NCBI GenBank assembly: GCA_963968755.1
Contig: CAXAIH010000001.1
Location: forward strand, 1 to 26,345
Direction of reading: 5' to 3'
Length of the DNA: 26,345 nucleotides
Source of the DNA: an uncultured Flavobacteriales bacterium
Lineage (GTDB): Bacteria > Bacteroidota > Bacteroidia > Flavobacteriales_G > Salibacteraceae
The translations under genes were made by a program, and so were the position numbers. Below, in pieces: positions 20,067 through 20,557 of the stretch. The notes beneath the pieces were generated by a model. It did no database searches. It had not been told where the DNA came from and saw only the letters and a list, made by a program, of their open reading frames with translations. Positions within the stretch are counted from its first letter, which is position 1, and each line of letters begins with the position of its first letter.

Positions 20067-20139
20067 GGTGCCATAGCTCAGTTGGTAGAGCAACGGACTG
20101 AAAATCCGTGTGTCGCTGGTTCAAATCCAGCTGGCACCA
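20067..20139 (+). tRNA. tRNA-Phe (GAA)
   Basis: Acceptor GGTGCCA/TGGCACC+A, D-arm GCTC..GAGC, anticodon arm ACGGA-CTGAAAA-TCCGT, T-arm GCTGG-TTCAAAT-CCAGC. CCA is not encoded. Confidence 0.98.
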
Positions 20140-20214
20140 CTTCAAAGCCCTAATCACAAGCTGGTTGGGGCTTTTTTTATGGCGTATACTATCTATATAT
20201 TACAAAGTGAAAGT
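20115..20214 (+). repeat. Direct repeat copy 1 (tRNA T-arm + 3' end + terminator + first 12 codons of GIY-YIG)
   Basis: GCTGGTTC and the 37-nt AAATCCAGCTGGCACCACTTCAAAGCCCTAATCACAA are identical in copy 2. Similarity continues through CGTATACT..TATTACAAAGTGAAAGT. Confidence 0.95.
20144..20178 (+). terminator. Intrinsic terminator of tRNA-Phe
   Basis: AAAGCCCTAATCA-CAAGC-TGGTTGGGGCTTT 13-bp stem (with G-U pairs) ending in a T7 run. Confidence 0.85.
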
Positions 20215-20553
20215 TATGGACGGCTTTATAAAGGTATGACTGAATATATAGCCGCCAGGCTCAGACAGCACAACGCAGGAAAAGTGAAATCAGCCAAGGC
20301 CTTTGCACCGTGGGAGGTAGTTCATACTGAGTCGTACTCATCTACTGAGCGAGCCAGAACGCGGGAGAAATATTTCAAATCTGCTGCTGGTCGACGTTGG
20401 ATTAAAAAGCACCTAGCACTACAGCTGGTTCCCCGCCCGTGCCGAACTGTACGTTCGGGCGGGAAATCCAGCTGGCACCACTTCAAAGCCCTAATCACAA
20501 ACTGGACGAAGCTTTTTTTTAGTAACGTATACTGTCTACATATTACAAAGTGA
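20179..20553 (+). CDS. Stand-alone GIY-YIG nuclease (about 80 aa core + 44 aa read-through tail)
   Basis: MAYTIYILQS...RLYKGMT...ARLRQHNAG..KS.K...PWEVV..E.......REKYFKS..GRRWI, containing YIL/YKG motifs, catalytic Arg, His and Glu. Confidence 0.9.
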   Translation: MAYTIYILQSESYGRLYKGMTEYIAARLRQHNAGKVKSAKAFAPWEVVHTESYSSTERARTREKYFKSAAGRRWIKKHLALQLVPRPCRTVRSGGKSSWHHFKALITNWTKLFFSNVYCLHITK

Positions 20554-20557
20554 AAGT
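20424..20557 (+). repeat. Direct repeat copy 2 (pseudo-tRNA 3' fragment, decayed terminator, truncated GIY-YIG start)
   Basis: Offset 309 nt before and 341 nt after a 32-nt insertion. Encodes TYTVYILQSES with no ATG. Confidence 0.93.
20432..20463. mobile_element. 32-nt GC-rich palindromic insertion in the T-loop of repeat copy 2
   Basis: CCCGCCCGTGCCGAACTGTACGTTCGGGCGGG with perfect 8-bp terminal inverted repeats. Absent from copy 1. Mobility is inferred. Confidence 0.7.

Follow-up and report, generated by a model that had tools for sequence, protein, structure and literature searches.

Introduction

GIY-YIG nucleases that reside among transfer RNA (tRNA) genes have been described in bacteriophages. 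SegB is a free-standing GIY-YIG homing endonuclease encoded in the T4/T6 tRNA gene cluster; the phage T6 enzyme cuts within tRNA genes, and the tandem amplification of a 718-bp unit made up of tRNA-Tyr and segB depends on its catalysis as well as on UvsX and UvsY (PMC13096335). On the bacterial side, the Slx1 cluster of the superfamily contains stand-alone proteins that represent a minimal form of the fold, and prokaryotic Slx1-type domains also occur fused to a TrmH-like tRNA Gm18 methyltransferase (Dunin-Horkawicz et al., PMC1564403). Here we analyze a bacterial chromosomal locus in which a tRNA-Phe gene is followed by a minimal GIY-YIG nuclease gene and then by a partial second copy of the same arrangement, interrupted by a GC-rich palindrome. 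The locus lies in an uncultured Flavobacteriales bacterium of the family Salibacteraceae (assembly GCA_963968755.1, contig CAXAIH010000001.1; genome G000). The window, by which we mean the whole stretch of DNA under analysis, is the entire 26,345-bp contig, part of a metagenome-assembled genome (MAG) of 412 contigs and 2.28 Mb at low depth. The public sequencing runs that contain this contig are marine metagenomes.

Our principal conclusion, to which we assign a probability of about 0.85, is that the nuclease gene and its tRNA-derived flanks constitute an integrase-free, tRNA-linked cassette that amplifies and is exchanged horizontally, and that the window holds an old, decaying copy of it. 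That the cassette is a horizontally mobile, amplifying, integrase-free element is indicated by its linkage to tRNA genes, its variation among congeners, the pattern of its phylogenetic tree and the existence of near-identical arrays.

Linkage of the nuclease family to tRNA genes

To place the nuclease in a wider context, we scanned one genome per species with a profile derived from an alignment narrower than our set of 19 aligned homologues, and found 144 relatives, of which the best 80 were analyzed as loci. A tRNA gene on the same strand lay within 100 bp of the open reading frame (ORF) in 61 of these 80 homologues (36 upstream and 25 downstream) and within 350 bp in 66, against a chance expectation of ~0.3-0.5% for a nearby same-strand tRNA. 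These counts bear out the enrichment of homologues at tRNA genes and tRNA fragments that had been anticipated in a preliminary description of the locus. Homologues recovered from metagenomes behaved likewise, with 21 of 26 linked to a tRNA gene. The linked tRNAs span many specificities, including Arg, Leu, Ala, Gln, Met, Ser, Val, Ile, Lys, Asn and Asp, and the nuclease and tRNA genes are co-oriented on the same strand at all loci but one, the exception being a second, more distant tRNA in locus L051.

Partial tRNA copies are present on the far side of the nuclease gene at almost every locus. Inserts of 22-83 nt break these fragments, mostly within the D-loop or T-loop and less commonly at other positions. 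The inserts belong to one hairpin family, with arms CCCGCCCG and CGGGCGGG; either orientation is seen, and some are nested or doubled. The T-loop plug of the window, missed by the preliminary description, is a hallmark of the family. Within the order to which the host belongs, the family occurs in 51 of 68 genomes, often in multiple copies, many of them truncated; it is common in Bacteroidota and is also present in other phyla.

Tandem arrays, turnover and phylogeny

The preliminary description had envisaged tandem arrays composed of a tRNA 3′ piece and a nuclease gene, and such arrays do exist elsewhere. Locus L042 carries 9.1 units of 327 bp at 99% identity, the array starting in the T-loop, and the complete genome G018 contains four copies spaced ~360 bp apart. 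The nearest relative outside the genus (L135/L136; 58% identity), located at a tRNA-Met gene, has exactly the layout of the window and forms a two-unit array, and its repeat, too, extends a few bases into the next nuclease start.

Turnover of the cassette was followed across 18 species of genus g9, at a site 3′ of one conserved gene. This tRNA-Ala(GGC) locus is empty in five genomes, and its other states comprise a single cassette, a truncated cassette, three tandem copies, an upstream-type arrangement and an inverted remnant. The comparison of close relatives that had been proposed for the tRNA-Phe locus accordingly yielded an empty allele (congener G002, see below) and, in g9, single and multi-unit alleles. 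Three cassette-bearing g9 loci carry a tRNA-Ala allele unlike that of their congeners. In G021 (L159/L033), the plugged fragment represents a foreign tRNA-Ala allele, matching the one found at the cassette-bearing loci of three congeners, and the adjoining working tRNA is the resident allele. In G021 at least, the plugged tRNA piece thus arrived with the cassette.

A tree of 75 nuclease proteins (80 alignment columns) was then annotated with three labels, and the number of label changes was compared with that in 300 shuffles. The amino acid of the linked tRNA required 10 changes (shuffled mean 16.5) and the side on which the tRNA lies required 8 (shuffled mean 18.8), with none of the 300 shuffles as low in either case; host class required 27 (shuffled mean 32.7), a value matched or undercut by 2 of 300. 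One clade unites Leu-linked cassettes of Gammaproteobacteria with those of candidate-phyla bacteria. The nuclease phylogeny thus appears to follow the type of tRNA and the layout of the cassette more closely than host taxonomy, a pattern that we regard as supportive rather than decisive, since an alignment of 80 columns gives poor resolution.

Anatomy of the tRNA-Phe locus

The features of the locus are collected in Table 1. ARAGORN, Rfam, the terminator scan and Pfam agree on the tRNA-Phe gene, the terminator that follows it and the GIY-YIG gene with its catalytic residues, upholding this part of the preliminary description. ARAGORN called no other tRNA in the window, and an Rfam scan returned no family besides tRNA. 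A TAnnTTTG-type motif is found at a similar distance 5′ of tRNA-Phe in most aligned relatives; TAGATTTG, its form in the window, is probably a promoter box of the Bacteroidota consensus.

Table 1. Sequence features at the tRNA-Phe locus (coordinates of the window)
Feature	Position	Strand	Basis
TAGATTTG, likely promoter -7 box of tRNA-Phe	20018-20025	+	Motif conservation in relatives
tRNA-Phe(GAA), intact, T-loop TTCAAAT	20067-20140	+	ARAGORN; Rfam RF00005, 78.2 bits
Repeat unit 1, 341 bp: tRNA positions 57-76, terminator, nuclease gene, T-stem 5′ piece, hairpin	20123-20463	+	
Intrinsic terminator, 13-pair hairpin and T-run	20144-20178	+	Terminator scan; DNA fold -8.3 kcal/mol, z -3.15
GIY-YIG nuclease ORF, 124 codons; conserved domain 20179-20421	20179-20553	+	Pfam PF01541
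Copy 2 of T-stem 5′ strand and TTC of T-loop (GCTGGTTC)	20424-20431	+	Identical to 20115-20122
GC-rich 32-nt palindrome, arms CCCGCCCG/CGGGCGGG, in T-loop	20432-20463	.	Inverted repeat; DNA fold -10.4 kcal/mol, z -2.9
Copy 2 of T-loop 3′ half, T-stem 3′ strand and acceptor 3′ end	20464-20480	+	100% identical to 20123-20139
Decayed copy of trailer and terminator	20481-20521	+	91% repeat; fold -1 kcal/mol, z +0.85
Remnant of second GIY-YIG gene, 12 codons, GTA replacing ATG	20522-20557	+	86% repeat, read in frame
REP-like element terminating the array, outside the cassette	20558-20685	.	30-nt hairpin motif recurs in G001

The T-run of the terminator directly adjoins the nuclease ATG at 20179, and the same terminator-ATG layout is found in the sister species G001. 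Since the ATG abuts the terminator in both genomes, the nuclease would be expressed only by read-through from the tRNA promoter. This junction also figures in an RNA-level interpretation, in which the plugged tRNA-like transcript would either be functional as an RNA or protect an mRNA end, with tRNA or tRNA-like RNA as the substrate of the nuclease. Such a system would account for the abutting ATG, for the nearly invariant co-orientation, for the placement of the plugged fragments, always at the outer end of the presumed nuclease transcript, and for the fusion of an Slx1-type domain to a TrmH-like Gm18 tRNA methyltransferase (PMC1564403); yet the palindrome occurs in both orientations, the fragments are often short stubs and no Rfam family matches them, and we consider an RNA-level system very unlikely.

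The two repeat starts are 341-343 bp apart, and the unit boundaries are the same as in the L042 and L135 arrays. Identity is 91% between 20123-20178 and 20464-20519, and 86% between 20172-20214 and 20515-20557. The second copy does start at the T-stem and repeat the tRNA 3′ end through to the first 12 codons of the nuclease, as first described, but it is not continuous, a 32-nt palindrome splitting its T-loop. Similarly, the listed differences between the two nuclease starts (ATC/GTC, TAT/TAC, GCG/ACG) are all present, but the description passed over the GTA that stands at the start of copy 2 and the dead terminator before it.

Unit 2 is a dead relic, a stump with a palindrome-split T-loop, a terminator that no longer folds and a lost start codon. 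Its terminator copy has accumulated five changes in the 3′ arm, with loss of folding, and its similarity to unit 1 stops after 12 codons, at the REP-like element. In the T-loop, the palindrome separates TTC from AAAT precisely, without duplicating any target sequence, and both the unfilled site (20115-20139, in the working tRNA) and the filled site (20424-20480) are preserved in the window. On balance, 20123-20557 is best read as an eroded tandem array in which a mini-cassette resident at a tRNA gene is present in two units.

The hairpin motif of the REP-like element (~30 nt, starting GCTAGCGCGAATCTCC) is also found at several G001 loci, once as tandem half-units. In G008, a TGCTAGCGCG string related to this motif is found 3′ of a truncated GIY-YIG gene.

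Integrase-driven islands are classically recognized by a tRNA 3′ end that is duplicated from the T-arm, and the two copies could in principle be the attL/attR scars of such an island, excised or decayed, at tRNA-Phe. No integrase, transposase or other recombinase was found among the window ORFs of at least 110 aa with a Pfam match (E <=1e-5); three ORFs of this size have no match. Within this scope the cassette is integrase-free, as had been stated. In addition, the repeats are only ~0.3 kb apart, the repeat extends into the nuclease gene and the layout recurs at >80 loci. On these grounds the integrase-scar explanation was rejected, and we regard it as extremely improbable.

An artefact of MAG assembly would be another source of a second copy, given 412 contigs at low depth and no contig that bridges the whole locus. 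The copies, however, are 9-14% divergent, and only one has the 32-nt insertion. In an independent Logan contig (X1), which matches 20402-20900 with 2 differences, the end of the nuclease gene is joined to the plugged fragment, to copy 2 and to the gene that follows, and the same architecture is also seen in single-contig genomes, for example G014. The second copy is therefore probably no assembly artefact; misassembly was rejected on this evidence, its remaining probability being negligible, and the earlier statement that copy 2 is not a fresh assembly duplicate stands.

The neighbors of the locus in the window are housekeeping genes, among them recA, infC, thrS, coaX and aspS. One further ORF, of 131 aa (21233-21628, - strand), matches only the C-terminal part (residues 183-306 of 308) of the Sbt_1 bicarbonate-transporter family and may be a truncated gene.

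Affinities of the nuclease

The nuclease matches the Pfam GIY-YIG family PF01541 over residues 3-71 with 46.3 bits against a cut-off of 22.6 (E 5.5e-12). The catalytic Tyr, Tyr, Arg, His and Glu are all present as Y6, Y17, R27, H31 and E63, and these residues, along with K67, are invariant across the 19 aligned homologues. The conserved part of the protein consists of 81 aa and comprises the GIY-YIG domain only, with no accessory domain. The stop codon usual for the family is missing, and the ORF reads across the hairpin and into copy 2, where it ends 43 codons later at a TGA (20551-20553); palindrome, T-arm copy and decayed terminator together supply this 43-residue tail (20422-20553). In L136 and other relatives the gene terminates just before the tRNA fragment.

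Searched against the Protein Data Bank (PDB), the family profile matched the UPF0213 proteins 1ywl (2.7e-12) and 1zg2 (6.8e-12) best, followed by the structure-specific nuclease SLX1 (9e-6) and, at 0.028, I-TevI. These matches assign the nuclease to the minimal UPF0213/Slx1-type branch of the GIY-YIG superfamily and not to the Seg- or I-TevI-type homing enzymes. Seg-type enzymes are larger and have a DNA-binding region. The joining of nuclease and DNA-binding domain that characterizes that type is not found here, only the 81-aa catalytic domain being conserved. No family in NCBIfam, PADLOC (at E 0.01 or better) or PHROGs matched the nuclease, and the suggestion that the cassette is a defence unit gained nothing from the PADLOC search.

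History of the insertion at tRNA-Phe

The sister species G001 shows the same synteny, with coaX, tRNA-Phe, the terminator, the GIY-YIG gene and a convergent CxxCxxCC gene in succession; its nuclease gene extends only to codon 68, and the second copy is absent. The nucleases of G000 and G001 share 69% protein identity and form a group in the tree that is supported at 99%. With synonymous sites saturated in the nuclease and in both flanking genes, we compared nonsynonymous divergence (dN) in place of dN/dS: between G000 and G001, dN is 0.235 for the nuclease, and 0.22 and 0.26 for the flanking genes. The tRNA-Phe gene lacks a cassette in the third congener, G002, and in ten other genera of the family Salibacteraceae, revealing a presence/absence polymorphism with filled sites in G000 and G001 and empty sites in the others. 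The simplest reading is one old insertion before the G000/G001 split, followed by vertical descent under protein-level constraint. What the preliminary description took for an expanding unit is, at this locus, an old, vertically inherited and eroding relic.

The T-loop of the tRNA-Phe gene (20115-20129 region) reads TTCAAAT in the cassette-bearing G000 and G001 and TTCGATT in 11 of 11 cassette-free relatives, a difference at two positions. This difference fits an import of the tRNA 3′ part with the cassette, and a lineage-specific change is equally possible.

A protein that has diverged no faster than the neighboring housekeeping genes since the G000/G001 split could also be a passive or domesticated passenger. 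Under this explanation, the nuclease would serve the host, for example in the repair of structured DNA, and would ride tRNA promoters, whereas the fragments, arrays and alleles would arise from RecA recombination and slippage among tRNA repeats without its involvement. The presence of the family in 51 of 68 genomes of the order, the lack of known selfish members in the UPF0213/Slx1 branch and the lack of a phage or plasmid carrier in the records searched are all in keeping with a passenger. Against it stand the patchy presence at orthologous loci with many pseudogene or truncated copies, the arrays of up to 9 near-identical copies, the protein tree, which follows tRNA type across phyla and not host, and the foreign tRNA allele that travels with the G021 cassette. 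We judge a mere passenger unlikely and retain the reading of an amplifying, horizontally exchanged cassette.

Distribution of the palindrome

Of the 68 genomes of the order, 7 contain perfect-arm hairpins, at 10 sites in all, and reversed-pattern controls gave no match. All inspected sites in the order lie in the D- or T-loop of tRNA-derived sequence, most of them ~60 bp or less from a GIY-YIG ORF or its remnant, and T-/D-loop palindromes beside GIY-YIG genes are also found in other genera. The window palindrome is identical at 31 of 32 positions to one in a cassette whose nuclease is only ~44% identical. Because this near-identity persists despite such protein divergence, the palindrome is itself either mobile or under strong constraint.

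Among 400 sampled genomes of the phylum, the 32-nt form was detected in only one further genome, G364. This genome contains 21 palindrome copies, all inside arrays of an 8-nt repeat (GTGATACG-like). At the nine G364 loci inspected (L118-L126) there is no tRNA-derived sequence and no GIY-YIG gene within 1.5 kb, and the genome encodes 2-4 nucleases of the family elsewhere. Near-identical copies thus lie at unrelated sites and are precisely inserted, as expected of a dispersed mini-element. The palindrome is tightly linked to cassettes in the order and is not bound to cassettes everywhere, its cis link to GIY-YIG genes being strong in the order and absent in G364. At the genome level, the nuclease is present in 6 of 6 genomes with the 32-nt hairpin versus 45 of 62 hairpin-free genomes, a co-occurrence that is not significant.

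This distribution recalls the pairing of repetitive extragenic palindromes (REP) with REP-associated tyrosine transposases (RAYT). By such a pairing, the nuclease would be a trans-acting enzyme that moves palindromes by cutting hairpin or loop tips, and the tRNA fragments would be landing sites tolerated for their redundancy. The inspected hairpin sites of the order, all in tRNA-derived loops and mostly beside a GIY-YIG ORF, are compatible with it, as are the precise insertions in both orientations, sometimes nested, the 31/32 identity of hairpins across cassettes with ~44%-identical proteins and the retention of 2-4 such nucleases in G364 alongside its 21 dispersed copies; Slx1 relatives are reported to cut branched DNA. 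The chemistry of insertion is nevertheless missing, GIY-YIG enzymes hydrolyzing DNA and having no known joining activity. Moreover, perfect-arm hairpins accompany only a minority of the GIY-YIG copies in the order (~150 matches versus 10 sites), and genome-level co-occurrence is, as noted, not significant. We hold a REP/RAYT-like pairing to be quite improbable, and continue with the palindrome as a companion of the tRNA-linked cassette.

Two individual sites were recorded in addition. In G008 (L022:1598-1712, - strand), a full-length tRNA-Val(GAC) carries the palindrome in its D-loop. A BLAST search of this 98%-complete genome turned up Val(TAC) and Gly(GCC) but no second Val(GAC), and the plugged gene may be the only copy for that anticodon in G008. 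In a tRNA-Leu cassette (L038:1700-1760), the fragment reads GCGGGTTC and then passes directly into the tRNA's own CCCGCCCGGGGCACCA; the palindrome arm motif therefore equals the natural T-stem/acceptor sequence of that tRNA, a match that may hint at the origin of the palindrome.

Proposed mechanism

The palindrome would, on our proposal, be a mini-element that moves independently and inactivates the spare tRNA copy, and both the spread of the cassette and the growth of its arrays would proceed by host homologous recombination via the tRNA-derived arms. The nuclease would supply the starting break, at the loops of tRNA genes or at the hairpin; by analogy with the phage system, we put this forward as a tentative possibility. 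In its full form, the proposal amounts to a new class of integrase-free chromosomal mobile element in which nuclease, tRNA-derived arms and GC palindrome act together. A structure-specific nuclease would cut the loop-coding tips (D-loop or T-loop) of tRNA genes; recombination would copy the cassette in, conserved tRNA sequence serving as portable homology arms; and the palindrome would plug the cassette's own tRNA copy. We consider this concerted form doubtful.

Several points weigh against it. With respect to the nuclease, the cutting of tRNA genes by the cassette enzyme would be an extrapolation from phage SegB, the 81-aa protein has no DNA-binding domain to confer site specificity, and its nearest solved relatives are structure-specific or uncharacterized; the intact neighboring tRNA, furthermore, would stay a target of any loop-cutting enzyme. 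With respect to the palindrome, many cassettes lack it, and in G364 it spreads without an adjoining GIY-YIG gene or tRNA. With respect to transfer, searches of 50,697 phage and 72,556 plasmid records found no member of the family, and the 2.9 million viral contigs of IMG/VR gave a single match, leaving the family with no known vehicle. Retention under constraint over a long vertical descent would fit a pure homing cycle poorly, and most forks of the nuclease tree are unresolved. Finally, no independent public contig bridges the tRNA and the nuclease; contig support for the locus is only partial because depth is 2-4x.

Significance and comparison with known systems

Should the proposed reading be correct, these cassettes would represent a second kind of selfish DNA at tRNA genes, besides integrase-driven islands: ~0.3 kb in size, recombinase-free and distributed across phyla. 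It would also explain the tiny "GIY-YIG family protein" genes and the pseudo-tRNA calls in Bacteroidota and candidate-phyla genomes, would give the uncharacterized UPF0213 proteins a testable function, and would provide a chromosomal counterpart to the SegB-type tRNA amplification of phages. To this picture the present locus adds tRNA-Phe as a target, filled and unfilled hairpin sites side by side, and a dated case in which a cassette appears to have persisted under protein-level constraint since two species separated. The literature reachable by full-text search holds no account of tRNA-linked minimal GIY-YIG cassettes, of plugged tRNA fragments or of the palindrome, and the cassette class appears to be new to that literature.

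Four described systems share part of this architecture. Like integrase-driven islands, the cassette duplicates the tRNA 3′ part from the T-arm and leaves a working tRNA; it differs from them in having no integrase, a unit of only 341 bp, a repeat that runs into the cargo gene and a displaced tRNA copy that is plugged by a hairpin. The 32-nt palindrome resembles REP/RAYT-type and other short dispersed palindromes in being GC-rich, multi-copy in some genomes (21 copies in G364) and precisely inserted, without target duplication and in both orientations, but no HUH transposase lies beside the inspected copies, and in the order it is confined to spare-tRNA loops beside GIY-YIG genes. The stand-alone UPF0213/Slx1-like proteins (1ywl, 1zg2) belong to the same sequence family and share the minimal GIY-YIG domain, whereas for them searchable papers report no function, tRNA-gene link, tRNA fragments, hairpins or arrays. 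SegB, in turn, is a phage enzyme without hairpin-plugged tRNA fragments, and the window protein has no PHROGs family, belongs to a family absent from the 50,697 phage records and aligns with UPF0213/Slx1 rather than with I-TevI; what the two systems have in common is a GIY-YIG gene set among tRNA genes and tandem units of tRNA and nuclease, which in the case of SegB arise by nuclease activity plus homologous recombination via short homologies.

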